The position numbers were made by a program, and so were the translations under genes. Shown here in pieces: positions 20,803 to 51,735 of a DNA stretch of 64,000 nucleotides. The number at the start of each line of letters is the position of its first letter. Positions within the stretch are counted from its first letter, which is position 1. Under the pieces are notes generated by a model. That model saw nothing but the letters and a program-made list of their open reading frames with translations, had not been told where the DNA came from and made no database searches. Origin of the DNA: an uncultured Gammaproteobacteria bacterium (GTDB lineage: Bacteria > Patescibacteriota > Patescibacteriia > Buchananbacterales > UBA6539); the NCBI GenBank assembly GCA_964540635.1, contig CAZINP010000004.1:55306-119305 (forward strand). The letters are read 5' to 3'.

Positions 20803-22593
20803 ATGGAAATAAGAAATATCGCCATTATTGCTCACGTTGACCACGGCAAGACCACCTTGACCGATGCTTTGATGTCTCAGACCGGAATGGTGGAAGCCGG
20901 CACAACCATGGACAGCAATGACTTGGAACTGGAGCGCGGCATTACAATATATTCAAAAAACACTTCAGTTTATTATCGAGATACCAAAATTAATATTGTG
21001 GACACGCCGGGTCATGCTGATTTCAGTTCGGAAGTTGAGCGAGTTTTGCGCTCAATTGATTCCGTGCTTTTGGTGGTTGATGCCCAAGAAGGTCCGATGC
21101 CTCAAACTAAATTTGTTTTGAAAAAATCTTTGCAATTGGGCTTGAAGCCGATCGTGGTGATAAATAAGATTGATAAACCGGCCGCTGATCCGGATTTGGT
21201 TCAAGAGCAAGTTTATGAATTATTTTTAGATTTGGGTGCCAGCGATGAGCAGCTGGATTTCACCACGGTTTATGCTATTGCCAGGCAGGGAATTGCCAAA
21301 ATGAATTTGGATGATAACAGCCAAGATCTAACGCCGCTGCTTGATGTGATTTTGGCTAAAGTGCCGATTGCTTCAGCGCCGGAAAAGAATGAATTGCCCG
21401 TTAGGTTTCAGCCGTTTAATTTGGCTTATGATAATTATCTTGGTCGTTTGGCTATCGGCAGAATTTATGAAGGCAAGCTTAAGTCCGGACCGGTTGTAGT
21501 TAAGAAGCCGGATAATTCTGTGCGCAACGGCACTATCACTAAGATTTTTTCTTTTCGTGGTTTAAAACGCGAAGAGGTTAAAGAGGCACTGGCCGGCGAT
21601 ATCGTTTTGATTGCCGGGTTGCCGGATATTTATATTGGCGAAACGGTTTGTGTGCAGCCTAATCAGGAGGCGTTGCCGGCAATTAACATTGACGAGCCAA
21701 CCATATCTTTAAGTTTTTTAGCCAACAATTCACCCTTTGCCGGTCGCGAAGGTAAGTTTGTTACCAGCCGTCAGATTAAAGAGCGTTTGGAAAGGGAATT
21801 GGAAGTCAATGTTGGTTTGAAAATTGATTTTTCGCCGGTTGATCACTATAAAGTTTTTGGTCGCGGTGAATTGCATATTGCCATTCTTTTAGAAAATATG
21901 CGCCGTGAAGGTTACGAGCTGCAAGTTTCACAGCCACAGGTAATTATTAAAGAAGAAAATGGTCAGAAGCTTGAGCCGTTTGAAGAAGTGACAATTGATA
22001 TTCCGGAAAATATGTCCGGCGTGGTAATGGAAAAAATGTCCAAACGCCGCGCGCAGGTTTTGGAAATGAAACCGGAGGCCGGACATTTGAGAATGATTTT
22101 TGAAGTTCCAACCAGAGGCATACTGGGTTATCGCAATGAGTTTATTATTGATACTCGCGGCGAGGGTGTGATGTATAGCCGGGTTGTCGGCTTTAAGCCG
22201 TATGCCGGCACAATAGAAAAAAATGAACTTGGCGCCATGGTCTCAGCTGCGACCGGCAAGGCTTTGGCATATTCTTTGGAAAACTTACAAGACAGGGGAG
22301 TTTTGTATATTGATGCCGGCGTGGAAGTTTACGAAGGCCAAGTTATCGGCAATGTGGCCAAGGGTAATGATTTGGACGTTAATCCAATTAAGGGCAAACA
22401 CCAGACCAATATGCGTTCGTCCGGCGCGGATGAAGCGATTAAATTAACTCCGCCTTTAAGAATTACCTTAGAGAGAGGTTTAGAAATAATGAATGATGAT
22501 GAATATCTGGAAATCACCCCGCAAAGTATCAGGTTAAGAAAGAAATTTTTATCTTCAATTGACAGAGTTAGGGAAAAAAGAAAAAACAGTTAA
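20803..22593 (+). CDS. typA: Translational GTPase TypA/BipA
   Basis: The G-domain AHVDHGKTTL and DTPGHADF are present, with full-length BipA architecture. Confidence 0.9.
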   Translation: MEIRNIAIIAHVDHGKTTLTDALMSQTGMVEAGTTMDSNDLELERGITIYSKNTSVYYRDTKINIVDTPGHADFSSEVERVLRSIDSVLLVVDAQEGPMPQTKFVLKKSLQLGLKPIVVINKIDKPAADPDLVQEQVYELFLDLGASDEQLDFTTVYAIARQGIAKMNLDDNSQDLTPLLDVILAKVPIASAPEKNELPVRFQPFNLAYDNYLGRLAIGRIYEGKLKSGPVVVKKPDNSVRNGTITKIFSFRGLKREEVKEALAGDIVLIAGLPDIYIGETVCVQPNQEALPAINIDEPTISLSFLANNSPFAGREGKFVTSRQIKERLERELEVNVGLKIDFSPVDHYKVFGRGELHIAILLENMRREGYELQVSQPQVIIKEENGQKLEPFEEVTIDIPENMSGVVMEKMSKRRAQVLEMKPEAGHLRMIFEVPTRGILGYRNEFIIDTRGEGVMYSRVVGFKPYAGTIEKNELGAMVSAATGKALAYSLENLQDRGVLYIDAGVEVYEGQVIGNVAKGNDLDVNPIKGKHQTNMRSSGADEAIKLTPPLRITLERGLEIMNDDEYLEITPQSIRLRKKFLSSIDRVREKRKNS

Positions 22594-22598
22594 GATAC

Positions 22599-22640
22599 AA
22601 AAAAACAACCTTGATTATTTCAAGGTTGTTTTTTATTTTT
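22599..22640. terminator. Bidirectional terminator
   Basis: AACAACCTTGattatttCAAGGTTGTT is flanked by A- and T-runs. Confidence 0.7.
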
Positions 22641-22642
22641 TA

Positions 22643-23377
22643 TTATATTTTGCCCAAGAGATTTTTGGTTTTTTGGGCCTGAGCGATGGTTTTAGTCTCG
22701 ATGATTAAAAGAAGCTTGTTGTTGTTGATTTTATTGATAATCTTTTCAAGCAAAGGCAAATCTTGTTTTTTTAGGGCAAGATGAAAATCCTTTTTGCCGT
22801 CATTTGAATGGATGTGCATTTGGATGATTTTATTTTTTGTTTGCGCCAAAAATCCGTCTAAATCAAAAATTTCTTTTCTTAATAAAGCCAATTTAAGATG
22901 GCCAAAATCAAGGCAAAGGTAAAGTCCGGGCATTTTTTTTAGCAATACAGTTAAGTAGTTGCCGCTGAAAGCGTTAGAAGAATTATTGTTCTCCAGGCAT
23001 AAATTCAAATTATATTTTTTTGCGGTTTTTAGCATTGATCTTATAGTTTTTATTTCAAAATTATCAAGCGGCGTTTTTTTATTGATGTGAAAAATAAAGT
23101 TTTTGCAGCTAAGCAAATATGCCAAGCGCAATTCTCCCTTCAATCTTTCAATTTCTGATTTGGCAATTAGCTTGTCCGGACAGAATAAATCTTGGCAGGC
23201 GGAGTGAAATGAGAATTTGACATCGGAAATTTTTTTCAAGGCCTTAATGTCTTTGTACCTGACGCAAGTCGTTTTATTGTATAGTTCTATATATTTATAA
23301 TCAAGACTAATAAAAGATTGGATCTTCTCCCAATATTCATTTTTTGTTTTTACAACAGTACTAATGCCAATTTTCAT
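22643..23377 (-). CDS. Xylose-isomerase-like TIM-barrel protein (sugar phosphate isomerase/epimerase family), AT-rich
   Basis: Motifs LCLEN, DFGH and MHIHSNDG are typical of the family. Composition is markedly more AT/Lys/Asn-rich than the neighbours. Confidence 0.45.
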   Translation of the reverse strand: MKIGISTVVKTKNEYWEKIQSFISLDYKYIELYNKTTCVRYKDIKALKKISDVKFSFHSACQDLFCPDKLIAKSEIERLKGELRLAYLLSCKNFIFHINKKTPLDNFEIKTIRSMLKTAKKYNLNLCLENNNSSNAFSGNYLTVLLKKMPGLYLCLDFGHLKLALLRKEIFDLDGFLAQTKNKIIQMHIHSNDGKKDFHLALKKQDLPLLEKIINKINNNKLLLIIETKTIAQAQKTKNLLGKI

Positions 23378-23467
23378 AATATTTTTTGATCGGTTGATAA
23401 ATCAAGTCTTTTAGTTTTTTATCATAATTAATTTACATAAGGGACGATTTAAAATCGTCCCTTAAAA

Positions 23468-25255
23468 CTATACTTGAATAATGACTGGTAAAACCATCGG
23501 TCGACGCTGAGTTTTTTGGTAGAGAAATTGGCCAATTTCATTTCTAATTCTGTCTTTAAAGTAATCTTCGTCAATGCCGCCCTTCAATTCGCCTTTAAAA
23601 ATTTTTCTGGTTTTTTGTCTGGTTTCTTCAATTAATTTTTTGCTTTCTTTCATGTGAACAAAACCGCGGGAAATCAAGTCGGGATTCTGGACCAATTTAC
23701 CCTCTTCTTTGTCCACGGTTACAATTACCACAATCATACCGTCAGCAGCCATCAGCTGTCTGTCTCTCAAAACAACATGAGAAACATCGCCCACGCCCAA
23801 GCCGTCAACAAAAACATAGCTGGTATTAACTTTTTGGTTGGTCACTCTGGCGCCCTGAGAATCAAATTCAATGATTTGGCCGTTGTCGGCAATCAAAATT
23901 TTGTCTTCTTTAAAGCCGACTGATTTGGCGACCTTTCCCGCTTCGCGCAAAAGATAGTGATTGGCATAGACCGGCATCAAATACGTAGGATTAACTTGCT
24001 TTAAGAGCAGTTTAATATCTTCAATTTTGCCGTGGCCGCCGGCGTGCACGTCCATAATTTCTTGATGAATTACGTCCGCCCCTTGACGATAGAGACTGTC
24101 TTTAAGGTTTTGAATGGTTCTTTCGTTTCCGGGAATAACCGAGGAGGAAAAAACGACCGTGTCGTTTTTTTCAATGCGAATAAAACGATGTTCGCCTGTA
24201 GCAATGCGATTTAGAACCGCTCGGCCTTCTCCTTGGGAGCCGGTACAAATAATCACGACTTTGTTTTTTGGTAAACTGTTGACTTTGTTAATATCAACAA
24301 TCGTATTTTTTTTAGCTTTTATGAATCCGAATTGGCGACCAATTTCAACGTTGGTTTTCATGGAAAAACCGTCAATGGCAATTTTTTTTCCTTGCTTTTC
24401 GGCGATCTGGATAACTTGTCCGACCCTTTCAACCATGGAGGCAAAGGTGCCAAAAATAACCCGGCCCGGGGCGTTATTGATGATGTTTTCCATATTCTTG
24501 TAAACTTCTTTTTCTGAACTTTGAAATCCCTCTTTGGTTGACCCTAAGCTTTCCATCATCAGAAGGGTTGGTTTTTTAAATTTGTTCCAGCGATTCAAAA
24601 AAGTAAAATCGGTCGGCTTGCCTTCAACCGGGTCCAAATCGTATCGCCAATCGCCCGGATGGATGATAATGCCGGTTGGTGTTTCAAGAACGATGCCGAT
24701 TGCGTCTTTGATGCTGTGGGAAACGGCAAAAAAATTGACTTTGAATTTACCCAAAAACATCGGATGGTTTAAATTCTTTACCTCCGAAATTTTTGGTGTA
24801 AACTTTTCGTGATAATTTTCAATTTGCCTTTTTACCAAAGCCACTGTCATCGGAGCGGCAACAACCAGGGGATTGCCAAGCTTTGGCAACAAATGAACGG
24901 CTGCGCCAATATGATCAAGATGGCCGTGGGTTAAAATTACAGCACGAATGTTTTTTTCTTTGCCCTTCAGGGATTGGATATTGGGAATAATATAGTCAAT
25001 TCCGTGCATGTCTTCTTCCGGAAATTGTGAGCCCATATCAATAATGACAATATCATTGCCATATTCAAAAACCGTCATGTTTCGGCCGACCTCTTCCAAG
25101 CCGCCGAGAGCATAGATTTTTAATTTTTCTTCTTTTTTTACTTTTACCAGCTTTTCTTTCTGGTTTTTTTGAGTGATTGGTTTTGGGGCTGGATCTTTTT
25201 TTGTCTTCAGCTTTAACCATTTCCGGTTTTGGCCGGATTTCTTTTGTTCAAACAT
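23468..25255 (-). CDS. rnj: Ribonuclease J
   Basis: The metallo-beta-lactamase motif LTHGHLDHIGA and the beta-CASP architecture are present. It has a Lys-rich N-terminal extension. Confidence 0.85.
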   Translation of the reverse strand: MFEQKKSGQNRKWLKLKTKKDPAPKPITQKNQKEKLVKVKKEEKLKIYALGGLEEVGRNMTVFEYGNDIVIIDMGSQFPEEDMHGIDYIIPNIQSLKGKEKNIRAVILTHGHLDHIGAAVHLLPKLGNPLVVAAPMTVALVKRQIENYHEKFTPKISEVKNLNHPMFLGKFKVNFFAVSHSIKDAIGIVLETPTGIIIHPGDWRYDLDPVEGKPTDFTFLNRWNKFKKPTLLMMESLGSTKEGFQSSEKEVYKNMENIINNAPGRVIFGTFASMVERVGQVIQIAEKQGKKIAIDGFSMKTNVEIGRQFGFIKAKKNTIVDINKVNSLPKNKVVIICTGSQGEGRAVLNRIATGEHRFIRIEKNDTVVFSSSVIPGNERTIQNLKDSLYRQGADVIHQEIMDVHAGGHGKIEDIKLLLKQVNPTYLMPVYANHYLLREAGKVAKSVGFKEDKILIADNGQIIEFDSQGARVTNQKVNTSYVFVDGLGVGDVSHVVLRDRQLMAADGMIVVIVTVDKEEGKLVQNPDLISRGFVHMKESKKLIEETRQKTRKIFKGELKGGIDEDYFKDRIRNEIGQFLYQKTQRRPMVLPVIIQV

Positions 25256-25395
25256 ATTTTTCGCAGGTTTTCCCTGCCATTCAAACGCGACTTGGTCGCG
25301 TTGAGAATTTAATTTTATTACTTAGAGAGAAAGTAGATTGTAGCTGCCAGAATGTACTTTTGGCATCTTCAGCCTATTTCCTCTTTTAGATATTT

Positions 25396-25482
25396 TGGTG
25401 CCGCGGGAGGGACTCGAACCCTCACTCCCTTGCGAGAACTAGCACCTGAAGCTAGCGTGTATGCCAATTTCACCACCGCGGC
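25396..25482 (-). tRNA. tRNA-Leu (anticodon CAG), with encoded CCA
   Basis: The cloverleaf was folded by hand. Acceptor is GCCGCGG/CCGCGGC, anticodon loop TTCAGGT, with a long variable arm, T-arm GAGGGTTCGAGTCCCTC, discriminator A and CCA. Confidence 0.85.
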
Positions 25483-25494
25483 TTGAAAAAGCCA

Positions 25495-27483
25495 TTACTT
25501 TATACTGCCTTGCCAGATTCTTTTTGTTTTTGTGTACCATTCAGAAAGATTGTTAAATCGATCGGCAGGCACGATAACCCTTTGAGTGTCAACGCCTTTT
25601 ATGTTTTTATTGATGACGTAAGTGTAAGTTGGATTATAAAGAAAGATGGCCGGCAGTTCGGTTGCCAGTAATTCCTGGAATTTGGTGTAGTATTCTTTTT
25701 GTTTTTCTGCATCATCGGTTTTTTTTGCATCTTCCAATAATTTATCCGCTTCGCGATTAGAAAGCATGGCCAGATTTAACCCCGGATCCTGAACCTGAGA
25801 CGAATGCCAAAATGGGCTTGGGTCGGGATCAGCCCCGACAATAATGCCGAAAAGCAAAACTTGATAATTTCTCGGTTTGATTATATCCCTGACAATTTTA
25901 CTGCTGTCAACAATTTCCAGTTCAACTTTAACACCGATTTCTCGCCATGACTTTTGAATAAGTTCGGCGGCCTTAACGTTTTCGGCCTGGTCAACGGTGA
26001 CCAAATTTATTTCCAATATCTGATCCTTTTTCTTTCTAAATATTTCTTGGGTGTTTTCTGCTTGACCCTCATCAATTAATTCTTCTTGGTTTTCGGAAAC
26101 AGCGGCTTCGGTGGTGGTGGCCGTTGAGGTAGCTTGATTTTCTGTTTCATTGGCCTTTTTGAATTCCAAATATTCTTCCCTGGTTATTTTTTTCCAGCCG
26201 CTTTCTTCAAGCAACTCGTTTGCTTCTTCCAAATTATAATTGATTTTTTTGTCTTCGGCTAAATCTATACCAATGGGTAAAATTGGCCCGTCAATTATTT
26301 TGCCCTCCAAATGAAGCGCTTCACTTAAGATATTTTGTTTGTCACTTGCCAAAGCCAAAGCCTTGCGAACATTTTTATCTTTAAGATCGGCGTTTTGTTT
26401 TTGATTAAAAAAGATGGCAGTGTATTGAGGCAAGTCAAACGAATAAAGTTTTAAGCTGCGATTGCCAAGCAAATCGGCTTTGTTTTTTTTGGGTAAAAAA
26501 CTAATACCTTCAACAGCGTGACTCTTAACTGCTTCAATGGCGGATTCAAAATCAGGGTAGAATTTAAAAGTTAATTTTTGCAAATAAGGCTTTTTGCCGT
26601 TATATTCGGGGTTTGGTACCAGTACATATGATTTAATATTGCCGAGCCTGTCTTTGCTTAAAGATTTAAATTTCCAGGGGCCGCTGCCGATTGGTTTTAA
26701 ATTGTATTCGGTTAAGTTGGCATTAACGGCCGGGATTTCCGCCCAAATGTGTTCGGGTAAAATGCCGGTCGTCATTAAGTCCAAAAAGCTGGGATAAACA
26801 TCGGGCAAGGTGAATTTAATTGTTTTATCGTCAACTTTTTGCACTTGAATTCCGCGCCAACTAACAAGCAGCGGGCTTTTAAAATCTTTATCCTGAACGC
26901 TTTGAAAGGTAAAAACCACGTCATCGGCCGTAAGCGGCTGACCGTCATGCCATTTTAAACCATCCTTTAAAGTAAAGGTGTAGATTTTTTTATCTTCACT
27001 CGCCTCCCAGCTGTCAGCCAAATCAGGCGTGAGCTGGAGGTCTTTATCATATTTAAGTAAACCGGAAAATACCAATCTGGAAATATCGGAATCAACATCG
27101 TTGGTTTGGGCTAAGAGGGGGTTTATATATTGCGGTGCGCCGACTAAGCCCTCAGTATATTCGCCGCCAACAACCGGAATGGGCAAAAAATTTCTGAAAT
27201 AGAAATTAATGATGATTACCAATAGAGAAATAAAAATTAAACCAATGGCCACCCTAAACTGCTTAAGCTGTTTGGCGTCTAAAACGCGTGGCAGGTATTT
27301 TAACTGTTTTGGGGTTGGGACTTTTTTTGAGTTTAGAGAGTAGACCAATTTTTTATCAAGGTCTTTTTGCATGAAAAAATCCGTGGTTTGGTTTGTTGCC
27401 AAGTCACTTTTGTGGTCAGTTTTTTTGATTTGATGTCGATTTTTGAGCTGACCCAATTTTAAGAAAAGGTTTGGTTTTGCCAC
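25495..27483 (-). CDS. ABC transporter substrate-binding protein, family 5 (oligopeptide OppA-like), membrane-anchored
   Basis: An N-terminal TM helix is present. SBP_bac_5-type motifs YTFTLKDGLKWHDGQPLTADDVVFTF are seen. Confidence 0.7.
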   Translation of the reverse strand: MAKPNLFLKLGQLKNRHQIKKTDHKSDLATNQTTDFFMQKDLDKKLVYSLNSKKVPTPKQLKYLPRVLDAKQLKQFRVAIGLIFISLLVIIINFYFRNFLPIPVVGGEYTEGLVGAPQYINPLLAQTNDVDSDISRLVFSGLLKYDKDLQLTPDLADSWEASEDKKIYTFTLKDGLKWHDGQPLTADDVVFTFQSVQDKDFKSPLLVSWRGIQVQKVDDKTIKFTLPDVYPSFLDLMTTGILPEHIWAEIPAVNANLTEYNLKPIGSGPWKFKSLSKDRLGNIKSYVLVPNPEYNGKKPYLQKLTFKFYPDFESAIEAVKSHAVEGISFLPKKNKADLLGNRSLKLYSFDLPQYTAIFFNQKQNADLKDKNVRKALALASDKQNILSEALHLEGKIIDGPILPIGIDLAEDKKINYNLEEANELLEESGWKKITREEYLEFKKANETENQATSTATTTEAAVSENQEELIDEGQAENTQEIFRKKKDQILEINLVTVDQAENVKAAELIQKSWREIGVKVELEIVDSSKIVRDIIKPRNYQVLLFGIIVGADPDPSPFWHSSQVQDPGLNLAMLSNREADKLLEDAKKTDDAEKQKEYYTKFQELLATELPAIFLYNPTYTYVINKNIKGVDTQRVIVPADRFNNLSEWYTKTKRIWQGSIK

Positions 27484-27508
27484 AACTATTTTTGTTTTAG
27501 TTTTTAGC

Positions 27509-27721
27509 CTAGAATACTACAACGGCAAGAGAGCTGGCTAAAAATATAACAGAGAAAATAATGGTTGCGATGAAAATGTTTTTTTCCAGTCCGCGCTTGG
27601 TTCTGTAAACATTGCCTTCTCCGCCAAAAGCTGAGCCAAGGCCAACACCACGGCTTTGGAGTAAAACCAAGACGATAAGAATAACAGCAGAAACGATTTG
27701 GATGATATTGTATATTTTCAT
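27509..27721 (-). CDS. secG: Preprotein translocase subunit SecG
   Basis: 70 aa with two TM helices and the motif LLQSRGVGLGSAFGG. Confidence 0.75.
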   Translation of the reverse strand: MKIYNIIQIVSAVILIVLVLLQSRGVGLGSAFGGEGNVYRTKRGLEKNIFIATIIFSVIFLASSLAVVVF

Positions 27722-27973
27722 AATGAGTATAGTTTATCAGAAAGTTGTAATATTGTCAACCCTAAGAAAAGATGGTTAGTCTCGCTTTTTGCCTTTTTGG
27801 TTAATCAATTTTTTGAGATTAAAGACGCCGCGACCGCTGACTTTCATTTTTTTCTTTTTCTTTTTATCTCTTTTTTGATATTTTTTTTCCAATTCATCGC
27901 CCAAGTGGTTTAGATTTGACATATTGGCCACTTTTTATTGTTCTTAATTTTATGATATAATATATATGTAATT

Positions 27974-28723
27974 ATGTATAGTGAGAATGAAAATTTTCAA
28001 CTGCCCCGGCTGCCCCGCCAAAAACTTGGTAATCAGCCGGCTTGGTATCGCCGCTGGTGGGGCATAATGATTGTGATTTTTCTTACATTGGTTTTAATTT
28101 TTTGTATTGCTTTTGCAATCTATATCGGCCAATTGGTTTACTTGGTTAAGACCGGACGTTTAGCGCCGGAACAGATTTTAGGCGATCAATCCAAAGAATC
28201 AAACAATATCAGCTTGGTTTTATCTGAAAGTTTTACTTACGGCCCAAAAGACGCCAAAGTAACAATTGTTGAATTTGGCGATTACACCTGCTCGGCTTGT
28301 AAGCAGGAATATCCGGTCGTAAAACAGCTTCTTAAAGATTACGGCGATAAGGTTTTGTTTGTTTACCGTGATTTTCCGGCCTTGCAAGACAATTCTTTGT
28401 CGGTGGTTTTAGCAGTAGCCGCCAACTGTGCCGGGCAACAAGGTAAATTTTGGGAAATGCACGACAGAATATTTCTTTATAGCGGTGATTTAACCGAAGA
28501 GGCTTTAAAAACTATTGCGATTCAAATTGGGCTGGACAGTTTGGAGTTCGGCAGCTGTTTGGCTGATCAAGAAAATCTTAAGAGAATTGAGCTTGACCTG
28601 CAGCAAGGATATAATTTAGGGGTTAGGGGAACGCCAACCTTTTTTGTAAACGGGAAAATGGTGGCCGGCGCTTTGCCTTTTAGTCTTTTTGAGACCGCCA
28701 TTACCGCGGCTCTAAGTCAATAA
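27974..28723 (+). CDS. DsbA-family thiol:disulfide oxidoreductase, membrane-anchored
   Basis: An N-terminal TM helix is present. The thioredoxin-fold active site is DYTCSACKQ (CxxC). Confidence 0.7.
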   Translation: MYSENENFQLPRLPRQKLGNQPAWYRRWWGIMIVIFLTLVLIFCIAFAIYIGQLVYLVKTGRLAPEQILGDQSKESNNISLVLSESFTYGPKDAKVTIVEFGDYTCSACKQEYPVVKQLLKDYGDKVLFVYRDFPALQDNSLSVVLAVAANCAGQQGKFWEMHDRIFLYSGDLTEEALKTIAIQIGLDSLEFGSCLADQENLKRIELDLQQGYNLGVRGTPTFFVNGKMVAGALPFSLFETAITAALSQ

Positions 28724-28726
28724 AAT

Positions 28727-29701
28727 ATGAAAAAAAATATTTTTAATTTTTTTCGGATTTTCTTAATTACCATCTTTTTTCTAACTGCTTTTGCCGGGCC
28801 GGTTTTGGCTGACTCTACCATTGATGTAACTAAGGTTGATTATCGTCCGGAAATAACAGTTGACATTGGCGGATTTGGCGGCAGTAATGATTTTGCCATG
28901 CCATCGCACACAAGTTGTGCTAATGGGGATGAGAATTGCGTAAGTATTAATTGGCTGGCAAATTACATTGCTGTAATTTATCAATACGGAATTGGTTTAG
29001 CCGCAATTTTGGCCGCAGTCATGATTTTGGTTGGCGGTTTTATTTGGCTCACCTCATTTGGTAGTCCTGACAAAATAAGTAAGGCAAAAGAATTTATTGT
29101 TGGTGCCCTAACCGGTTTGGTTTTGGCGCTTTTTTCGTATTTAATACTTTATACTCTAAACCCCAATTTAGTAAAAAATGAAGCGCTGGTTGTTTCGGGG
29201 GTGGAGACAGCAAATATGAGTTGCTGCAAACAGTCAGATGGTACCTATGCAAAAGAATCGGTTGCGGCCGGACAAAGTTGTGCTTCGGGTGAGCCGGCCG
29301 TGTCAGACGATCTTTGTCGGAGTAAGAAAGAAATTTGCGAAGAAGACAGAAAGGGTATTTATATTGCCGCAACCACCGTTTTGACTACAGATTTAAATGA
29401 GTTTTGTGAGCAGGCTTGCGAAAATGTTGATTCAACAATTGAATTGGTGGAAGAGTATAGTCGTAGCGAAGGGGGAAATAGCGCCACCGGTTGTTGTGTT
29501 TGTAAGGCCAAGAACGATATCGGCTGTTGCCATGGGGAGGCGGCCCCGATAAATTGGGTAACAGGCGGCCGCGTTGGTGTAGCCGAAGAGTGGGCTTGTA
29601 CAACCAGGTCCTATTGTCTCAACTTACCAAGAGCAAATATGAGCTTTAAGGAAATTGATGTTGAGTGTAGCGTAGAGTACTGCAAAACATTAAGCTATTA
29701 A
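28727..29701 (+). CDS. Paralog A of a signal-peptide / Cys-rich ectodomain / two-helix hairpin membrane protein family (VirB2/TrbC-pilin-like topology), with a Cys-rich C-terminal domain
   Basis: The conserved core INWLANYIAVIYQYGIGLAAILAAVMILVGGFIWLTSFGSPDKISKAKEFIVGALTGLVLALFSYLILYTLNPNLV is shared with the next two genes. The C-terminal domain has about 20 Cys. Confidence 0.5.
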   Translation: MKKNIFNFFRIFLITIFFLTAFAGPVLADSTIDVTKVDYRPEITVDIGGFGGSNDFAMPSHTSCANGDENCVSINWLANYIAVIYQYGIGLAAILAAVMILVGGFIWLTSFGSPDKISKAKEFIVGALTGLVLALFSYLILYTLNPNLVKNEALVVSGVETANMSCCKQSDGTYAKESVAAGQSCASGEPAVSDDLCRSKKEICEEDRKGIYIAATTVLTTDLNEFCEQACENVDSTIELVEEYSRSEGGNSATGCCVCKAKNDIGCCHGEAAPINWVTGGRVGVAEEWACTTRSYCLNLPRANMSFKEIDVECSVEYCKTLSY

Positions 29702-29708
29702 TTATTTT

Positions 29709-30824
29709 ATGAATAAAAAATTAAAATCAATTTTTTCATTTTTAATTATATTTTTATTTTATTTTTTCTTACTCGGCTTTTTATTTTTTCCTTCACCGAT
29801 TTTTGCTATTTGCTGTAAATGTGAAAGTACGGCTGTGACCGGCGGTCAAGAGCAAAGCGGCACTAATTGTGAGAATGTTAATATTGATAAATGTTCAGAT
29901 TTAGATCAATCTGCAAGCGCGCCTGGCGTATATACTTCAAAAAAATGCACATTAATTGATTGCTCTGATCCACTTTGTCCGGCGGCGGAAGTTGAACCAA
30001 CGGCTATCAGGCAAGAAATAAAAGAATCCGTCCCAATTTTAAATATCAAGATTGGAGGCACCCTTATCCAGTTTGATCCGGTCAAATGCGGGCCGGGCGA
30101 AGTCTGCCCGATTTCTTGGTTGGCGCAGTATATCAATGTTTTGTTTAAGTATTTAATTGGTATTGCCGCTATTTTATCAGCCGTAGTGATTTTATTTGGC
30201 GGCTTTGTTTGGCTAACTTCATTCGGCAGTCCGGAAAAGGTTAAACAAGCCAAGGATTATATTATCGGTGCGATGACCGGTTTGTTTTTGGCTTTATTTT
30301 CTTATTTGATTTTATTTACGATAAATCCAAATTTGGTAAATTTTAATCCGATTAATTTAAAGGTGGTTAAGCCATTGGTTGCTGAAGGCTTTGGTGTTGG
30401 TGCCTCAGGTGAAGGTTCCGGTGGTACCGGAGGCCAAAGTATTGGTCCAGGCGGTGGCGATGGCAGCGGTACGGTCAGTAATACCGGACTGACTGATTAT
30501 ACGGTTCAAAAGATTTCAGAGTACGAAGCGCATGGTTGTGAGGTTACCGGCAGGTGGAGACCGGACGGCGCTGGTAGTCGTCATCAGTCTGGTTATGCAG
30601 TCGATTTTGCTTATACTGTGGGAGATTCTTGTTATAATTATATTACTCAAAATGCCCAAACGACCGTTGATGAGGCACGGAGTTGGTGGCACGAATATTA
30701 TATTATGCCCGACGGTTCAGTTTGGGTTCACGAAAATAATGCAGTTACTGGTGGTTCCGGACCCCACTGGCATGTGGAATTTCCAGATCCCAATGGTAAT
30801 TGGGAGTGGCGTGAAGCCAGGTAA
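29709..30824 (+). CDS. Paralog B with the same hairpin core, plus a Gly-rich linker and a C-terminal LAS/M15-like zinc peptidase (peptidoglycan hydrolase-like) domain
   Basis: The core ISWLAQYINVLFKYLIGIAAILSAVVILFGGFVWLTSFGSPEKVKQAKDYIIGA... is present. The C-terminus carries SRHQSGYAVDF and HWHVEF, matching the LAS family H-x(3-6)-D and H-x-H motifs. Confidence 0.55.
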   Translation: MNKKLKSIFSFLIIFLFYFFLLGFLFFPSPIFAICCKCESTAVTGGQEQSGTNCENVNIDKCSDLDQSASAPGVYTSKKCTLIDCSDPLCPAAEVEPTAIRQEIKESVPILNIKIGGTLIQFDPVKCGPGEVCPISWLAQYINVLFKYLIGIAAILSAVVILFGGFVWLTSFGSPEKVKQAKDYIIGAMTGLFLALFSYLILFTINPNLVNFNPINLKVVKPLVAEGFGVGASGEGSGGTGGQSIGPGGGDGSGTVSNTGLTDYTVQKISEYEAHGCEVTGRWRPDGAGSRHQSGYAVDFAYTVGDSCYNYITQNAQTTVDEARSWWHEYYIMPDGSVWVHENNAVTGGSGPHWHVEFPDPNGNWEWREAR

Positions 30825-30855
30825 CGCGATAATTTTATAATTACGATTTTATAAA

Positions 30856-32013
30856 TTGATGTTTATGTGTTCTGGAAATAATAAAAATAGATACTTATTT
30901 TTTTTGTTATTATTTTTCATTTTTGCTCCGATTTTTTGTTTGGCAGAAACCAGATGTTATTGCTATGAATCTTCAAGCGATCCCGATGGTGGCGCCGGTC
31001 GATATTTTTCAATAAATTGTCCGGATGAAAATTGTGACGAGGGCGACTGTCGATATTATCAATGTGCGCCGGACACCGTCCCAATAACTGAGATAAGGGA
31101 TTATCAAGCGCAAACCCAATCCGATAAGCTAAAAAAGCAGATTGAAATAACCACCCCTGTTTTGCAGGTTGATATCGGCGACACCTCAATCCAATTTGAT
31201 CCGGTTAAGTGTAGTGCCGGAACTGATTGTGAAATTCCTTGGTTGGCCCAATATATTAAAGTAATTTTTCAGTACTTGGTTGGTTTGGCTGCTATTGCTT
31301 CGGCCGCAGTGATTTTATTTGGCGGGTTTGTTTGGCTAACTTCATTTGGCAGTCCGGAAAAAGTCAAACAAGCCAAGGATTATATTGTTGGGGCTTTTGT
31401 TGGGTTGTTTTTAGCTTTATTTTCTTATTTAATTTTGTTTATCGTTAATCCAAATTTAGTAAATTTTAAACCATTTAGCATATTAAGCGTTAGTCCTTTA
31501 TCAGCGCCCGCTTGGACTTTTTCCGGTTCAACTGGCGGCTCTTCCTCGGTCGGTTCCGGAGGAGTTGGATCGGGGAACGGCATTGTCGGTGATTATGATT
31601 TTTCTAGATATGCAACCAGTGGTACGCACGCTCAAAGGTTGAGAGATTTGGTAGCAGGAATGGGACCGATTACAAACGCGCAACAGGCTCAAGTTTTTAT
31701 TGATCGTTATCCCGGCTCACCAATAACCGGAGAGATGATTATGAGTACGGCTGAAAGATACAATATTGATCCGGCTGTACTTCTGGCTGAGTTGGCTCAG
31801 GATAGCAGCATGGGAACTGCGGGTCGGGGGGCGGATAGTAATAATCCTGGAAATTATGCCAATGCTGACAATGAAGCGGACACAAGATCTGGGTGTAGAT
31901 CGCCCGGTTATATTTGTACCTCAGAAAATGGTACTGTAAATTGTTGTTTTTCTACTTGGCAAGAAGGGGTAGATGCAGTGGGTGGTTGGCTTGACAGACA
32001 CAGAACAAATTAA
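30856..32013 (+). CDS. Paralog C with the same hairpin core, plus a C-terminal glucosaminidase/lysozyme-like candidate domain
   Basis: The core is about 90% identical to paralog B at the nucleotide level (31180-31480 vs 30060-30360). The C-terminus ERYNIDPAVLLAELAQDSSMGTAG...NNPGNY resembles muramidase/glucosaminidase motifs, but this is weak. Confidence 0.45.
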   Translation: MMFMCSGNNKNRYLFFLLLFFIFAPIFCLAETRCYCYESSSDPDGGAGRYFSINCPDENCDEGDCRYYQCAPDTVPITEIRDYQAQTQSDKLKKQIEITTPVLQVDIGDTSIQFDPVKCSAGTDCEIPWLAQYIKVIFQYLVGLAAIASAAVILFGGFVWLTSFGSPEKVKQAKDYIVGAFVGLFLALFSYLILFIVNPNLVNFKPFSILSVSPLSAPAWTFSGSTGGSSSVGSGGVGSGNGIVGDYDFSRYATSGTHAQRLRDLVAGMGPITNAQQAQVFIDRYPGSPITGEMIMSTAERYNIDPAVLLAELAQDSSMGTAGRGADSNNPGNYANADNEADTRSGCRSPGYICTSENGTVNCCFSTWQEGVDAVGGWLDRHRTN

Positions 32014-32018
32014 ATACC

Positions 32019-32047
32019 CACCATTAAATTGACATATAACAATTCTT
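32019..32047 (+). promoter_or_regulatory. Consensus sigma70 promoter TTGACA-17-TATAAT for uvrA
   Basis: Perfect -35 and -10 hexamers are read directly. Confidence 0.65.
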
Positions 32048-32108
32048 CGCGTATAATGGGTATTTAGTTAGTTGACTAGATACCTTTTATTTTTTATTTT
32101 TTCTCTTT

Positions 32109-34943
32109 ATGCCCAAGACAATCAAAATCCGCGGCGCCAGAGTTCATAATTTAAAAAACGTTGACGTTGATATTCCGCGAGATAAACTCGTTGTGCTAAC
32201 GGGAATTTCCGGTTCGGGAAAATCGTCTTTGGCTTTTGATACGATTTATGCTGAAGGGCAGAGGCGTTATGTGGAATCACTTTCCACTTACGCCAGACAA
32301 TTTCTAGGTTTAATGGATAAACCGGATGTTGATGCGATCGAAGGTTTGTCGCCGGCAATCTCTATTGACCAGAGAACAACTATGACCAACCCGCGTTCAA
32401 CTGTTGGTACGATTACGGAAATCTATGATTATCTTCGTTTGCTTTTTTCGCGCATCGGTCATGTCCACTGCCCCAAATGCGGCCAAGAATTAACCGAGCA
32501 ATCCGCCGGTCAAATTATCACTCAAGTTTTATCATTGATTAAAAGTAAGCCTCCCAAAGAGGTTTTAATTTTGGCTCCAACGCCGTTTAATCAAAAAGAC
32601 GGACAGCAAAAAACCATTGCTGAAATAAAAAGTTCCGGCTTTAAAAAGATTCGTTTGGACGGGGTAATTTATGAATTAGATAAACCGAATTTGCCCGCGC
32701 CGACCGAAAAAAGCCGGATGGAAATCGTGGTCTCTCAAATAAAATATAATTCCAAGCAGGCCGAAATTTTTAAAGAAGAATTTAACCGGTCTGTTGATTT
32801 GGCTTTAGACTTAGGTGATGGTCAGATTATTATTGCCCTGGATGATAATGAGCACTTTTTTTCCCAGCATTATTTTTGCCGAAGTTGTAATTTAACCCTG
32901 CCTCACTTGGAGCCGAGAAATTTTTCTTTTAATTCTCCGGCCGGCGCTTGTCCAAAATGCTTGGGTTTAGGCACTCGCCTGGAAGTTGATCCGGAGTTGG
33001 TTATTCCCAACGAGCGTTTGACTTTGGCGCAAGGGGCGATAAAACCCTGGGCTAGAAATTTTGCCAACCAAAATATTTACCTCCAGCTTTTGAAGGCCGT
33101 AGCCAGAGATAATAATTTTTCTTTGGATGTGCCGGTGCAAGATTTAGCGCCTAAAATTAAAGATTTAATTTTAAATGGCAGCAAAGAAAAAGAATACTTG
33201 GTTGGTGAAGAAAAAATGCCATTCAAAGGTGTCCTCACGATTTTGGAAGAAAAGCATGCTCAAACCACTTCGGATTATTTGCGCTCGGAAATTGAACAGT
33301 ATATGCGCGTTTTTACTTGTCCGACCTGTCAGGGTAAACGTTTGAAAGAAATTTCTTTAGCCGTAACCGTTGGTGGTCTAAATATTTCTGAAATTACCAA
33401 CCAAACCATTGAAAGCGCCATTGAATATTTTCAAAAGATTTCCAAAGAAAGCAAGGGCAAGGAAGCTTTAAGTTCGCGCGAGCAAAAAATTGCCACCCAG
33501 ATTAATAAAGAGATAATTTCGCGTTTGAATTATTTAAACAGCGTCGGTTTGGGTTACTTGACTTTAGACAGACCGGCAGCCACTTTGGCCGGCGGTGAAG
33601 CACAAAGAATCAGGCTAGCAACCCAATTGGGTTTATCTTTGACCGGAATTGTTTATATTTTGGACGAACCTTCCATTGGTTTGCATCAGCGCGACAATCA
33701 AAAGCTGATTGACACGCTAAAATATTTACGCGACTTGGGCAATACCGTTATTGTTGTTGAACACGATAATATGACCATGGAAGCGGCCGACTTAATTATT
33801 GATGTTGGCCCGGGAGCGGGTGAAGCGGGTGGTAAAATTGTGGCCATGGGCAGTCCGAGTGAAATTAAAAAGAATAAAAATTCTCTAACCGGCAAATATC
33901 TTTCCGGAGAATTAAAAATCAAGCCGCCAAAAACTTATCGCAAGGGAAGTGGTAAGTATATTGAAATTATTGGCGCGCAAGAATTCAATTTAAAAAATGT
34001 CAATGCTAAAATTCCTCTGGGTAAATTTGTTTGCTTAACCGGTGTTTCCGGTTCGGGCAAGAGCACCTTAATGCTTGAAATTTTGGTTAAAGCTTTGGCT
34101 AAGAAATTTTACCGCGCCAAGGACACTCCGGGTAAGCACAAAGAAATTAAAGGCATTGAAAATATTGATAAAGTTATTGCCATTGATCAATCTTCAATTG
34201 GCCGAACACCGAGATCAAACCCCGCCACTTATACCGGTGTTTTTACTTATATTCGCGATTTATTCACTGAAATTCAAGAGTCAAAAGTTCGCGGTTATCG
34301 CGCCGGTAAATTCAGTTTTAATTCTCAAGCCGGTCGATGTGATTATTGTGGCGGCGAGGGGATGGTAAAAATTGAAATGCAGTTTTTGCCTGACGTTTAT
34401 ATTCAATGTGAAGAATGCCACGGCAAGCGCTATAAGCAAGAAGTGCTTGAGGTGCATTATCAGGGCAAAAATATTGCAGATATTTTGGATATGTCTGTGG
34501 AAGAAGCAATGAAGTTTTTTAAGAATCATCAGATAATTTATACAAAATTAAAAACATTGTATGAAGTGGGGTTGGGTTATGTGAAGTTAGGCCAGCCGGC
34601 AACAACCTTGTCCGGTGGTGAAGCGCAAAGGGTTAAACTTTCAACCGAACTTTCGCGCCGTTCCAGCGGTAAGACCCTCTACATTTTGGATGAACCGACA
34701 ACCGGCTTGCACTACGAAGATATTAAGCAGTTGTTGCTGGTTTTAAATAAACTGGTTGATAAAGGTAATACAGTTTTGATAATTGAGCATAATTTGGATG
34801 TGATTAAATGTGCCGACTGGATAATTGATATGGGCCCGGAAGGCGGCAGTGGCGGCGGTAAAATTGTGGCCGAAGGCACGCCGGGAGAAATTGTTAAGGC
34901 AAAAGGATCTTTAACCGGGAAATATTTAAAAGAAGTAATGTAA
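32109..34943 (+). CDS. uvrA: Excinuclease ABC subunit A
   Basis: 944 aa with duplicated ABC ATPase modules ([18 protein letters not shown]) and zinc-finger Cys pairs. Confidence 0.95.
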
Positions 34944-40625: not shown

Positions 40626-41459
40626 ATGGCTTTTGAAGGAAGAAAAAAAGATAATCGCACCATTTTAGAGGATATATATCATGAGGATATATCTGCCAAA
40701 TCGGCAAAAATCCAAATTAAGGAATATTTCAGTGATCCAAATAGAATTGAAAAATTGCTTTCGGCAAGTATTTTGTTTGTCGGCCTAGTTGCGTTGCTTC
40801 TAGGTCTTTTTCAGATAAAAAATAACATTTCGCCGGTAAAAAGGATTGCTCAAAAAACCAATGTCAATCAGGTTGATAACGAAGACTTGCTCGGTCTGAA
40901 GCAAAAAGATACGGATCAAGACGGGTTATCCGATTATGATGAGCTTAAAGTTTATAAAACCAGCCCCTATATTGCCGATACTGACTCCGATGGTTTTGAC
41001 GATAAAATTGAAATCGTTCAGGGGACTGATCCGGTTTGTCCGGAGGGTCAAAATTGTTTTGCCAACTGGACGGAAAATCCGCTAACCAACCCCAATGATC
41101 AGTCAAGTCAGGATCAGGCGCAAAATTTATCAGCGGATCAATTACGAGAAATGTTAATTCAGGCCGGCATGAGCGAGGAACAGTTGAGTCTTTTAAGTGA
41201 TGAAGAAATAGTGAATGCGTACCAACAAATTGCCGGCCAGCAAAGCACGCAAACAATTTCTGGTTCAAACGATTCTGGTCAATCAGCTTCGCTGACCCTG
41301 CCTTTACAGGAATTAAAAAATTTAACTCCAAATGAAATTAGGGAATTATTGGCCGAGAATACCGATATTACCGCCGAAACCCTTGCCAGTATTTCTGATG
41401 AAGAATTAATGAATTTAGTTAATGAAACCTTAGCTAACTATAAAGTCAATGGAAACTGA
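40626..41459 (+). CDS. Membrane-anchored protein with thrombospondin type-3-like calcium-binding repeats
   Basis: One TM helix is present. DTDQDGLSDYDE and DTDSDGFDD are DxDxDGxxDxxD repeats. It overlaps the start of the giant gene by 11 nt. Confidence 0.5.
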   Translation: MAFEGRKKDNRTILEDIYHEDISAKSAKIQIKEYFSDPNRIEKLLSASILFVGLVALLLGLFQIKNNISPVKRIAQKTNVNQVDNEDLLGLKQKDTDQDGLSDYDELKVYKTSPYIADTDSDGFDDKIEIVQGTDPVCPEGQNCFANWTENPLTNPNDQSSQDQAQNLSADQLREMLIQAGMSEEQLSLLSDEEIVNAYQQIAGQQSTQTISGSNDSGQSASLTLPLQELKNLTPNEIRELLAENTDITAETLASISDEELMNLVNETLANYKVNGN

Positions 41460-44400
41460 AAATAAAAATCAAATTGATAAAATGGAATTTGGATTTTATA
41501 AAAAATCAATTACTACCACTGTTTTAATCAGCATGGTTTTTTCGGTTGTTATGCCGGCCCTGCTTTTCCCGCTTGATCCGGTTTTGGCTGACAATAAGAT
41601 GAGTCCTTTGCCCGCAACTCAGCCCGGTTCGGCAGCTGCCGGGGCGGTACCTCAGCCAAAATTGAACAGCGAGACCATCAACGAGGCAAATAGGGCTGAA
41701 TCGGTAAAGGTTTATGACTCCAGCCTAATCAGCAAGGTTCGCGAAACAAATACAATTACTTCTTCATTTAAAAAGGGCGTTGAAGTAATTGCCGATACTT
41801 TTAATACCAGAGATTGGAGTTGGGAGAGCTTGAAGGATGCAGTTTATGTGGCCTCCAAGGAAGCTTTAAATTATTTATTGAATACTTTTGCTTACGATGT
41901 AGCCACCTGGTTGGCGTCTGGCGACAAGGGTCAGCAGCCGATGTTTTTTACTGACGGCTGGGGTCCATATTTGACCAATGTTTTAGATGAAGCCGGCGGT
42001 GTCTTTTTGGAGTCATTGGGTCAAGATTGGGGCAATTTCAATTTATGTAATCCGACTGTTTTTAATTTGAAAGTCAGCATCGGTTTGGGTATTGCTGAAA
42101 TGGACAAACCAAAGAAGCCATCATGCACTATTACGCAAATGGTAAACAATTGGGATAAGATGATCAGTGATGGCAGGATTTTAGACAATATTGATTTGAT
42201 GTTTGATTCCAAGAATAATGATTTTGGCATTACCCTGGATATTTTAGGTCGTCACGCGGAGTACAAAACGCAAGCGGCTTTGAATGCAACCAAAGATAGA
42301 GAAGAGGGTCAAGGTGCCAAGAGTGTGAGCGGAAAAATAGCTGATAAAATATTTACTCCCGCCTTTTTGGTCAGGGATGAGGCTCAATTAATGTTGGCCA
42401 AGGGTACAGTGGCAGACGAACAGGTCAATTACGGTGATATTTTCATGAATGCGGTTAGTAATTTTATTAATACTTTAGCCGGTAAGCTTTTAGATAGAAT
42501 ATTTAAAGAAGGTTTGGCGGCTTTGAGCGGCAGTAATAGTAGTAATAAAGATAGTGATAACAGCGATTTATTTGACGCCCTAAGGACAGGTGAAGAAATC
42601 GGCCGTAATCTTTATAATTTGTTAACAAATCAAGACGATGAGCTCTACACCGGCCAAACAGGCACAACCTTGTTTGCCGGCAAGCAAGCTTCTCAGGAAA
42701 GATATAGCGGTCTTCTACGTGCGGGTGTTAAAGAAACCGGACCATATGATGTCCTGACGAAATTTGTGGTCTGCCAGGATCCAAAGAACCCGGGCGTTGA
42801 TGAGTGTGTGATTGATCAAAAATTCCGATCGGCAATCTCTAAAAAAATTACTTTGCGTCAAGCCATCTCCGAAGGCCTGATTAATGGCGATGCCCCGTTT
42901 GGTTATAAAGCGGCAACCATTAAAGAGGGCATACCGTACAGAACCATCGTTATTTTACGCGCGCATCGTATTGTTCCAATCGGTTGGGAGTTGGCCGCCA
43001 GAGTGGCCAACGAGTTTGTGCCCCAAGAAACCTGGACTCTAAATAAGTTAATTGAAAATTATAATGTTTTAGGTAGTCCGTTTAAGGGTTTGGTTGATCC
43101 GAACTGGGTTTTGGAAGTGCCTTTGCATTATTGTAAGGCTCAGGGTTATGGCGCCAAGATTCTGTCTGACAAAATTGTGGCCGGAACTGATGCCAATAAT
43201 GACGGCGATTATGATGACGCGAGTGATTTGGCGCCGGGTCGAACCGTTTCCAGAGAACAGTATTGTGCTGACTTCCAGACCTGCATTCAGAAGAGTAGCG
43301 ATGGCGGCTGTTTATATTACGGCTATTGTACTGAAGAAAAACCGATTTGGGATTTGGATGGCAAAGAATGTAAATCACAATTTAACACTTGTTTAACCTT
43401 TCAAAAGGCCGGCGATAAAGTTGTCAGCTATTTGGAAAACACTTTGAATTATAATAATTGTAGTAAAGAAAACGCCGGATGTCAGTGGTATTGCAATGAA
43501 TTTAATACAATAAATAACATTTGGTCTTGTACGGCAGAAAGTGAAAAGGTGTTAAAGACTTGCAGTCAGACTAGTCGCGACGGCCAGGGTGTTGTCGGCT
43601 GCATTACAAATGCCAGCTGTGAAATGAATACCGGCGATACGGTTTGTAATGATTTGGTCAGCGGTATTAAGATGGTAATTTCTCAGCCTTGCAGCAATAC
43701 GACTAAGTGGTGGAATGCCGCCACTAATAAATGTACGGTTTCAGCTTCTTGTACAATTCCAAAAGGTGGCGTTTATTGCCAGGTTGGCGGTTGCGAAAAT
43801 CTGGAAAATTTATTGCCCAACCCGAGCTTTGAAACAGCTTCAACCACTTATGACGTGCCTTCGCCGGCTCTTGGCTGGTATGCCGATACGAATTACTTCA
43901 AGAAGGTTGGCAGCGCTCTGGATTATATTTATCGCGGCAAATCAAGTTTAAGATTTTATAATGCCGGCACCCTTGTCAGTGAGAATGCAATTTCCGGCAA
44001 CGTTTTACTCAAGACGGGAAGCTACACTTTATCCGGTTATATATTTAATAATTTGAATGTTGGTGAGATAAAGATTGCCGCTATTAATGCGGCCGGCAGC
44101 GAGATTAAATCCATTGCCTTGTCTACTGAGGGAAAACAGACTTGGTATCAGGCCAGTTTTGATTTTAGCGTTACGGCCGATACCCAGGTCAGAGTTAAAA
44201 TAAATGTTACCGATCCAAATGGCAACCAAGTGAGCGGTTCGGCCTGGTTTGATAATTTTAGAATTTCCCAAAGCTGTATTACCAACCCAATTACTTTAAC
44301 CATGGTTGGCGATGTTGAAAAGTCAGAAAGTAAGATTAATTTTGATCGCGATGTTAAAACTTGCCCTTCGGATGCGGCCGGTTGTACGGAATTTATTAGC

Positions 44401-51729: not shown

Positions 51730-51735
51730 TAAAAT

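Follow-up and report, generated by a model that had tools for sequence, protein, structure and literature searches.

In a 64 kb chromosomal stretch of a Patescibacteria (candidate phyla radiation, CPR) genome, hereafter the window, three tandem genes (A, B and C) encode proteins in which one conserved pilin-type hairpin is followed by a different C-terminal module each time, resembling a zinc peptidase in B and a glucosaminidase in C. From open reading frame (ORF) calls, Pfam, NCBIfam and PHROG scans, and comparison with relatives, we read them with moderate confidence as extended VirB2-like pilins with lytic modules, which would be exported, face outwards and be linked to a type IV secretion system (T4SS); between related strains the modules are replaced. 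All three genes are co-oriented and share one layout: behind the signal peptide come an outer domain, the two-helix hairpin and a linker, and the protein closes with a C-terminal module that diverges from gene to gene. The original prediction for this DNA, made by a model from the sequence alone, had described three tandem plus-strand paralogues with signal peptides, and both statements held: the ORFs encode 324, 371 and 385 aa, with a signal-peptide-like segment at each N-terminus.

28727-29701, + strand: gene A, 324 aa. The signal peptide covers aa 1-28 and precedes a short outer N-terminal domain with 2 Cys; the hairpin spans W76-V149 (nt 28952-29173) and is followed by a C-terminal domain with 16 Cys (aa ~157-324).
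29709-30824, + strand: gene B, 371 aa. The signal peptide covers aa 1-33 and precedes an outer N-terminal domain with 10 Cys; the hairpin spans W137-V210 (nt 30117-30338), and a Gly/Ser-rich linker (aa ~215-258) leads to the LAS/M15-like C-terminal module (aa ~259-371, nt ~30483-30821).
30856-32013, + strand: gene C, 385 aa from TTG 30856 or 382 aa from ATG 30865. The signal peptide precedes an outer N-terminal domain with 8 Cys; the hairpin spans W129-V202 (nt 31240-31461), and a Gly/Ser linker leads to the GH73-like module (aa ~250-385).

The start of gene C is probably ATG 30865, as in the public NCBI record. Only 7 nt separate A from B and 31 nt B from C, with uvrA following 95 nt after gene C. 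All three ORFs are intact and were found exactly, or at 99% identity, in independent NCBI and Logan assemblies. The window is rich in housekeeping genes (typA, RNase J, secG, uvrA, leuS, femAB, ksgA, metK), and its nearest related loci belong to Candidatus Buchananbacteria and other Patescibacteria metagenome-assembled genomes (MAGs).

The shared part of the three proteins is a gap-free core of 74 aa (W..NPNLV) with flanks that are not alignable. Cores B and C are 84% identical at the protein level and A is 69–70% identical to either. Pfam PF18895 (T4SS_pilin, VirB2-like; gathering threshold 26.6 bits) scored 31.6 bits with B, 29.5 with C and 24.2 with A, the last just below threshold but matched by our local core hidden Markov model (HMM) at 6e-40. 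All three cores also gave a weak match to NCBIfam NF045849, a pilin-like conjugal transfer family of mycoplasma integrative and conjugative elements (E 4e-5 to 0.013). None of A, B and C matched Pfam PF04956 (TrbC/VirB2) at E <= 0.1; in relatives this family was detected below threshold (P0020, 0.0023; gene 1 of L015, 0.002; and seven of 76 members of the B-type family described below). AlphaFold (AF2) modelled the core as two long helices, at residues 136–170 and 175–205 in B (pLDDT 81–87) and 125–159 and 164–194 in C, and searching the core profile against the PDB gave no match. The helices are joined by a loop of the form TSFGSP(E/D)K..AK, and the loop TSFGSPEKVKQAKDY has three Lys and two Asp/Glu residues. 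A single loop motif had been proposed for all three paralogues, which is correct for A (TSFGSPDKISKAKE) but not for B and C, which read TSFGSPEKVKQAKD.

The core profile also finds short stand-alone pilins, mostly of 104–150 aa, many of which carry PF18895 and some also PF04956; they match most of the core's length at up to 47% identity. This protein search listed only proteins of <=151 aa and is hence no census of fused forms. Six short pilins that we read consist of a signal peptide and the hairpin with little else: five stop 8–33 residues beyond NP-x-L, and the most distant, P0241, is without NP-x-L. As the short pilins hardly exceed signal peptide and hairpin, the window proteins can be described as canonical members of this family, extended by an outer domain on the N-terminal side and by a linker with C-terminal module on the other. 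They have the VirB2/TrbC layout of a signal peptide followed by two hydrophobic helices with a short basic loop, but not the size of a small pilin (a precursor of ~100–150 aa that is essentially the hairpin), with ~50–105 extra residues before the hairpin and ~170 after it. The PF18895 scores, the NF045849 match and the resemblance to short pilins all support the VirB2/TrbC-type hairpin that had been proposed, and the AlphaFold models agree in predicting a helical hairpin. A relaxed HMM search of the 64 kb window detected no short pilin gene and no other pilin-like ORF. Over 86 aa, the cores of 26 proteins align without a gap, and mean column identity in a 16-sequence alignment is 56%; judged from these alignments, conservation of the core is far beyond what a plain membrane anchor would need.

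At the DNA level, the cores of B and C are 81.5% identical over 222 nt, or 82% over the coordinates first compared, rather than the ~90% reported in the original prediction, and the recent duplication or ongoing gene conversion deduced from that figure finds no support, as synonymous sites are far from identical and the third codon position differs in 28 of the 74 codons. A patch of ~75 nt (30189-30263 versus 31312-31386) is 93–95% identical, and it has far fewer synonymous differences than the part upstream of it, which is just as well conserved. Synonymous differences between B and C are unevenly spread, affecting ~15–20% of same-residue codons at aa 156–185 and 50–70% at aa 101–150, hence the patch at 30189-30263 could be an old short conversion tract or reflect constraint at the codon or nucleotide level.

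The C-terminal module of gene C had been likened to glucosaminidases and muramidases, and this resemblance was upheld. It matches Pfam PF01832 (Glucosaminidase) at 18.4 bits and E 0.0036, under the gathering threshold of 30.2, two homologues (P0024, P0027) carry a precomputed PF01832 match, and its AlphaFold model (pLDDT 78–97) has the lysozyme-like GH73 fold. Compared with known GH73 N-acetylglucosaminidases (Ecd09610 of C. difficile, Atl of S. aureus, LytB of S. pneumoniae, Auto of Listeria), to which it is 12–17% identical, the module has Asp (QDSS) in place of Glu, four Cys, a pilin-type anchor and a sub-threshold Pfam score. The QDSS...NNPGN module is also present without a pilin core in three proteins of 434–654 aa (P0027, P0028, P0029), one of which has Ig-like Big_2 repeats matching phage tail/structural PHROGs. 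This hints at exchange of GH73-like modules with phage lysins. None of the three window modules matched PHROGs, so for these there is no direct evidence of a phage origin.

The C-terminal module of gene B is likely, from its conserved residues, to be a LAS-type zinc peptidase, and is best termed putative.

30582-30773, + strand: candidate zinc/catalytic residues of gene B, namely H292 (30582-30584), D299 (30603-30605), E342 (30732-30734), H353 (30765-30767) and H355 (30771-30773).

The two motifs originally read in paralogue B, SRHQSGYAVDF (H292, D299) and HWHVEF (H353, H355), are present exactly as described. Three positions (G295, D299, H353) do not vary across 35 family members, and three more (H292, E342, W354) are conserved in >=90%. 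The family signature H-x6-D ... E ... H-W-[H/D] is the LAS zinc-site pattern, and its H-x6-D part can be aligned to the zinc motif found in Sonic hedgehog, VanY and M15_4. The module is not recognised by any Pfam, NCBIfam or PHROG model. Pfam VanY reached E 0.11 with B, spanning both motifs, and matched four of the 35 members (best E 0.001; cut-off 10), and it was the only Pfam family matched by more than one of them. Against the PDB, neither the single C-terminal domain sequence nor the 35-sequence profile gave a match; a six-sequence profile of the close subfamily gave sub-threshold matches only (best E 0.28–0.4, up to ~0.9), among which, at similar E, were the N-domains of Sonic and Indian hedgehog over TEGWDEDG..H..GRAVD. 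Pairwise hhalign comparisons returned P values of 2e-4 to 6e-3 overall (VanY 0.0017 over 86 columns; hedgehog fragment 0.0016–0.004; M15_4 2e-4), with reversed controls at 0.06–0.6; hhalign probabilities were 4–44%. The AF2 model is of low confidence over this module and full-length fold searches were uninformative. The LAS/M15 identity proposed at the outset thus stands as far as the conserved H-x6-D, E and H-W-[H/D] residues go, with weak support from VanY, Hedgehog and hhalign, and no significant M15 profile match was obtained.

Comparison with known LAS zinc peptidases (MEROPS M15: VanY/LdcB, M15_4; and the Hedgehog N-domain) shows likenesses and departures. The H-x6-D within S-x-H-x-x-G-x-A-V-D is common to these and the B module, an upstream Arg/Trp segment resembles TEGWDEDG..H..GRAVD of Sonic hedgehog and the C-terminal E...H-x-H is shared, whereas the spacing from E to H-x-H is longer and most family members read TGGTE.GH...H..GYK.D...HWD. 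Searching 1.84 billion proteins with the B-module profile returned 349 cluster representatives (50% identity) at E <= 0.001. Among 76 representatives that were scanned, PF18895 was also present in 51 and TrbC in seven, which makes the B-type domain mainly a partner of pilin cores. The analysis defines a B-type domain family of 349 clusters at 50% identity, judged by its motifs probably a large metallopeptidase domain family that previously had no name or Pfam model.

The C-terminal domain of gene A (16 Cys) had no Pfam, NCBIfam or PHROG match. Proteins P0010, P0011 and P0013 share this architecture, and the Cys-rich module is probably non-catalytic, with a binding or structural role. The core contains no cysteine, whereas each outer segment has an even number of them (N-terminal/C-terminal: A 2/16, B 10/2, C 8/4). 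A Cys-rich N-terminal domain had been ascribed to all three proteins, which applies to B (10) and C (8) but not to A, where the N-terminal domain has two and the 16 are C-terminal. The gene directly before the array is a candidate source of disulphide bonds.

27974-28723, + strand: membrane-anchored DsbA/thioredoxin-like oxidoreductase, 249 aa (Pfam Thioredoxin_4 1.9e-25, DSBA 4.5e-20).

Its stop lies 3 nt from the start of gene A, and in nine loci (the window, L001, L002, L006, L007, L008, L010, L012 and L014) a DsbA gene directly precedes the first extended pilin. The DsbA encoded there would oxidise the even-numbered cysteines of the outer domains.

Relatives have this core fused to further peptidoglycan-lytic domains that score above Pfam thresholds, as follows.

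3D: P0006, P0009.
Phage_lysozyme/GH24: P0014, L005.
NlpC/P60: P0015.
VanY/M15: P0016, P0020.
SLT: P0017.
M15_4: P0018, L015.
VldE-like, matching an endolysin PHROG: P0008.

Gene order is conserved in the window and 14 related contigs: (RNase J)-SBP-secG-dsbA, then one to three extended pilins, then uvrA-leuS. The modules carried at this site vary from contig to contig.

Window: Cys-rich, LAS, GH73.
L001: Cys-rich, LAS, 3D.
L002: Cys-rich, VldE-like, 3D.
L003 and L009: LAS in the last gene.
L004 and L011: VldE-like, GH73.
L005: GH24.
L008: unassigned, GH73.
L006, L010, L012 and L014: modules without an assigned family.

A 2368-aa protein of another Patescibacteria MAG (L016, 3306-10412) is headed by the same pilin-type core (E 1e-12), which shows that the hairpin can head giant proteins too.

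Replacement of a module between strains is directly visible when the window is compared with its close relative L001.

31476-32042, + strand: replaceable C-terminal cassette of gene C, not alignable with L001, which has a 3D module there (PF06725, 5.4e-08).

Nucleotide alignment (blastn) of the two runs from 20820 to 31475, is absent over 31476-32042 and resumes at 32043, with the swap boundary at 31475/31476 directly after NPNLVNF at the end of the core. There are zero mismatches over 7.9 kb upstream (20820-28723), and the first mismatch, at 29020, is inside gene A. Divergence then climbs from 0.8% in A to 3.0% in B; within C it is 4.3% in the first part and 11.4% across the core. Past the cassette it is 10% over 158 nt and falls to 1.4% in the remainder of uvrA. 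The jump in divergence within the compared region (20820-34176) marks either a recombination boundary in gene A or assembly strain mixing. P0005 and P0006 show 95% identity in the conserved part and 23% in the C-terminal modules. The same pattern holds in a second, independent set (P0015, P0016, P0017), where the N-terminal part and core are 69–91% identical and the modules (NlpC/P60, VanY and SLT, respectively) 20–22%. The recombination visible in these alignments is replacement of the C-terminal module between strains. Conversion from paralogues was considered as the main source of the core differences between the window and L001, and rejected; since most L001 variants match no paralogue, their source is exchange between lineages and not conversion within the array. 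The conserved core and uvrA would serve as homology arms through which recombination between lineages swaps the C-terminal module. The secG-dsbA/uvrA locus is a conserved chromosomal hot spot of module exchange between near-identical strains and a candidate marker of host range.

These features can be assembled into a mechanism. The proteins would be exported by Sec, with the signal peptide probably cut, and inserted into the membrane through the two-helix hairpin. VirB2/TrbC pilins have a cytoplasmic loop and both ends outside. With that topology the basic loop of A, B and C would be cytoplasmic, and the N-terminal domain and C-terminal module would lie outside the membrane, the module tethered by a flexible Gly/Ser linker of ~40 residues. 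The C module would act as a GH73-type hydrolase on glycan strands and the B module as a LAS/M15-type zinc peptidase on peptide stems. Since the hairpin is the same module that makes up whole short stand-alone pilins, the enzymes may be stationed at the type IV secretion/pilus machinery or passed on to it, and there they would cut peptidoglycan, either of the cell's own wall (the job of VirB1) or of the wall of the host cell to which the epibiont attaches, or both. A VirB1/VirB2-like functional pair, as was suggested in the original prediction, is a plausible hypothesis.

The same prediction placed the array beside T4SS-like genes. Such genes are present in the window, as listed here, but they lie 20–28 kb away and the constant neighbour of the array is the DsbA gene.

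51736-54891, + strand: extended TrbL/VirB6-like membrane protein, 1051 aa (Pfam TrbL 25.7 bits, threshold 25.9).
59362-59820, + strand: PrgI/VirB3-like protein (Pfam PrgI 6.8e-09), followed by a 226-aa ORF.
60487-62391, + strand: VirB4-type ATPase (Pfam P-loop_TraG 3.5e-30, AAA_10 2.3e-10).

Several observations weigh against reading A, B and C as T4SS-linked lytic pilins. The array ends at 32013 with the T4SS genes 20–28 kb downstream, beyond uvrA, leuS, femAB, sua5 and ksgA, and within the clade it is fixed between secG-dsbA and uvrA. The bulky ends of the proteins (~50–105 and ~170 residues) may not fit a VirB2-type filament and, to our knowledge, no experiment establishes pilus formation by any PF18895 protein. 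No immunity-type gene was found at the array. For the gene C module, in addition to the sub-threshold PF01832 score, an Asp (D316, AQDSS) aligns with the catalytic Glu of the A-L-E-S helix in the alignment to Listeria Auto, hence the general-acid Glu of GH73 enzymes is missing; this Asp is invariant in seven members (C, P0024–P0029), so that an acid is kept but is not Glu.

The main rival explanation, which we consider possible but rather unlikely, is that the proteins are ordinary membrane-tethered autolysins in which the PF18895 hairpin is only a two-pass anchor and which remodel the cell's own wall in growth and division, with no link to a T4SS or pilus. Such a role would suit a locus that in at least ten related genomes sits amid envelope and housekeeping genes (SBP, secG, dsbA, uvrA) and not beside virB4, and a general anchor would be expected to head a variety of proteins, as this core does in the 2368-aa protein and in front of non-enzymatic Cys-rich modules such as that of gene A. 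However, conservation of the core and of its presumed cytoplasmic loop goes well beyond what anchoring requires, and for a housekeeping autolysin a switch of bond specificity (GH73 to 3D) between identically flanked strains would be unexpected. Furthermore, a search of relatives for the family near virB4, as had been proposed, showed that the dsbA-uvrA site is conserved in relatives, but that two more distant ones (L013, L015) have extended pilins, one with M15_4, ~8 kb from virB4. Most PF18895/VirB2-like genes lie near virB4, in 1135 of 1948 assemblies (PMC12102498). Because the hairpin corresponds to a whole short pilin, its loop is conserved and these two distant relatives carry extended pilins near virB4, we favour a T4SS link, in which the modules would be a substitute for VirB1 or a tool for breaching the host wall.

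A second explanation, which we think improbable, treats the proteins as polymorphic-toxin-like effectors, where signal peptide, N-terminal domain and hairpin serve trafficking and the lytic module is released, for example by linker cleavage, or delivered by the T4SS to lyse a host or competitor. Two independent sets (P0005/P0006; P0015/16/17) combine a conserved N-terminal part with unrelated C-terminal modules, all identified modules are peptidoglycan-lytic and divergence is concentrated in the three genes (3–11% versus 0% in the upstream flank), all of which would be expected of such effectors. Against this, no immunity gene follows any module (gaps of 7, 31 and 95 nt, then uvrA), no known toxin-trafficking domain was detected, the linker cleavage site is hypothetical and gene A and several position-1 genes have non-enzymatic modules. 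Known polymorphic toxins (Rhs, CDI, LXG/type VII secretion system effectors) likewise have a conserved N-terminal part, exchanged unrelated C-terminal modules and diversity concentrated at the locus. They differ from the window proteins, which have no immunity gene or known delivery domain, carry wall hydrolase and Cys-rich modules rather than nucleases or deaminases, and have a pilin-type hairpin as the conserved part.

A bolder version of the T4SS-linked pilin reading, to which we give low probability, would have the extended pilins as major or minor subunits of a T4SS-built filament, an armed pilus that carries interchangeable hydrolases on flexible tethers at its surface or tip and bores through the host wall. 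If true, such a pilus could be retooled for new host wall chemistry by swapping modules, and it would also explain the absence of VirB1 in most Patescibacteria with VirB2-like pilins. Finally, although the window and L001 both come from metagenome assemblies and the sharp change from 0% to several-percent divergence could be assembly strain mixing, it is very improbable that the array is an artefact of chance ORFs, pseudogenes or an assembly chimera with similarity from hydrophobic low-complexity sequence, given three intact ORFs recovered from independent NCBI and Logan assemblies, architecture and synteny in at least 12 independent MAGs, core HMM E values of ~1e-40 and a GH73 module with pLDDT above 90.

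Arrays of VirB2-like pilins are common among Patescibacteria, and VirB1 is missing from most genomes that have them (PMC12102498). S. epibionticum cannot grow as an epibiont without its T4SS and pilin array (PMC10633639). What the two do in the only Patescibacterium amenable to genetics, where they are essential to epibiotic life, has yet to be worked out (PMC10633639, PMC11665869). The genes studied here resemble the described arrays in Pfam family, phylum, signal peptides and tandem divergent paralogues, of which those arrays have 2–11 (PMC12102498, PMC10633639). They differ in that the described pilins are treated as small proteins (relatives here 104–150 aa) and are often beside virB4, whereas ours are 324–385 aa and dsbA-linked. 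VirB1-type hydrolases (VirB1 of Agrobacterium; TraG of pIP501 and PrgK of pCF10) are also wall-cutters, dedicated to T4SSs, and the monoderm TraG and PrgK are membrane-anchored and combine several lytic domains. However, each of VirB1, PrgK and TraG is a protein in its own right, held by one N-terminal anchor and equipped with SLT and/or CHAP domains, whereas here the lytic module is fused to a pilin-type hairpin and the enzyme classes are interchangeable and differ from the VirB1 type (LAS, GH73, 3D, GH24, NlpC/P60, SLT). Hydrolase-fused extended pilins, a dsbA-linked locus and module replacement are not mentioned in PMC12102498, PMC10633639, a 2025 T4SS review, a 2024 perspective or other full-text papers on PF18895/T4SS_pilin, a literature coverage that is incomplete. 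What is new here is thus the extended pilin-hydrolase fusions, the dsbA-linked locus and the module swapping; VirB2-like arrays were already known, and domain databases implicitly hold these architectures. The swappable pilin-anchored modules suggest a toolkit for cutting through cell walls, and pilin hairpins with changing hydrolases offer a concrete link between T4SS machinery and the breaching of a cell's own or its host's wall.

Further features of the window were noted in passing. Between the stop of gene C and uvrA, the stretch 32029-32085 holds a perfect sigma-70 consensus (TTGACA-17 nt-TATAAT) directly followed by a 12-bp hairpin and a T-run, and is 10% divergent from L001. In the region 41449-54891, which ends with the VirB6-like ORF, a co-oriented 3426-aa ORF with a CBM_4_9 carbohydrate-binding domain lies directly upstream of that ORF and is a candidate giant surface protein with a coupling to the T4SS. 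Directly after virB4, the ORF at 62401-63006 had a marginal HMM match as a pilin and was rejected as such, since it is a single-pass membrane protein with one N-terminal membrane helix and an Rv0361-like domain (weak NCBIfam Rv0361_Cterm match, E 2.7e-5). Where it lies and how it is built suggest that it is a VirB8-like component, a type reported to be hard to find in Patescibacteria. At 9632-10789, a 385-aa ORF with a weak bactofilin match (28.7 bits, threshold 27.9) adjoins phosphoglucosamine-mutase-like and Glu-racemase genes, a group of cell-wall and cytoskeleton genes.

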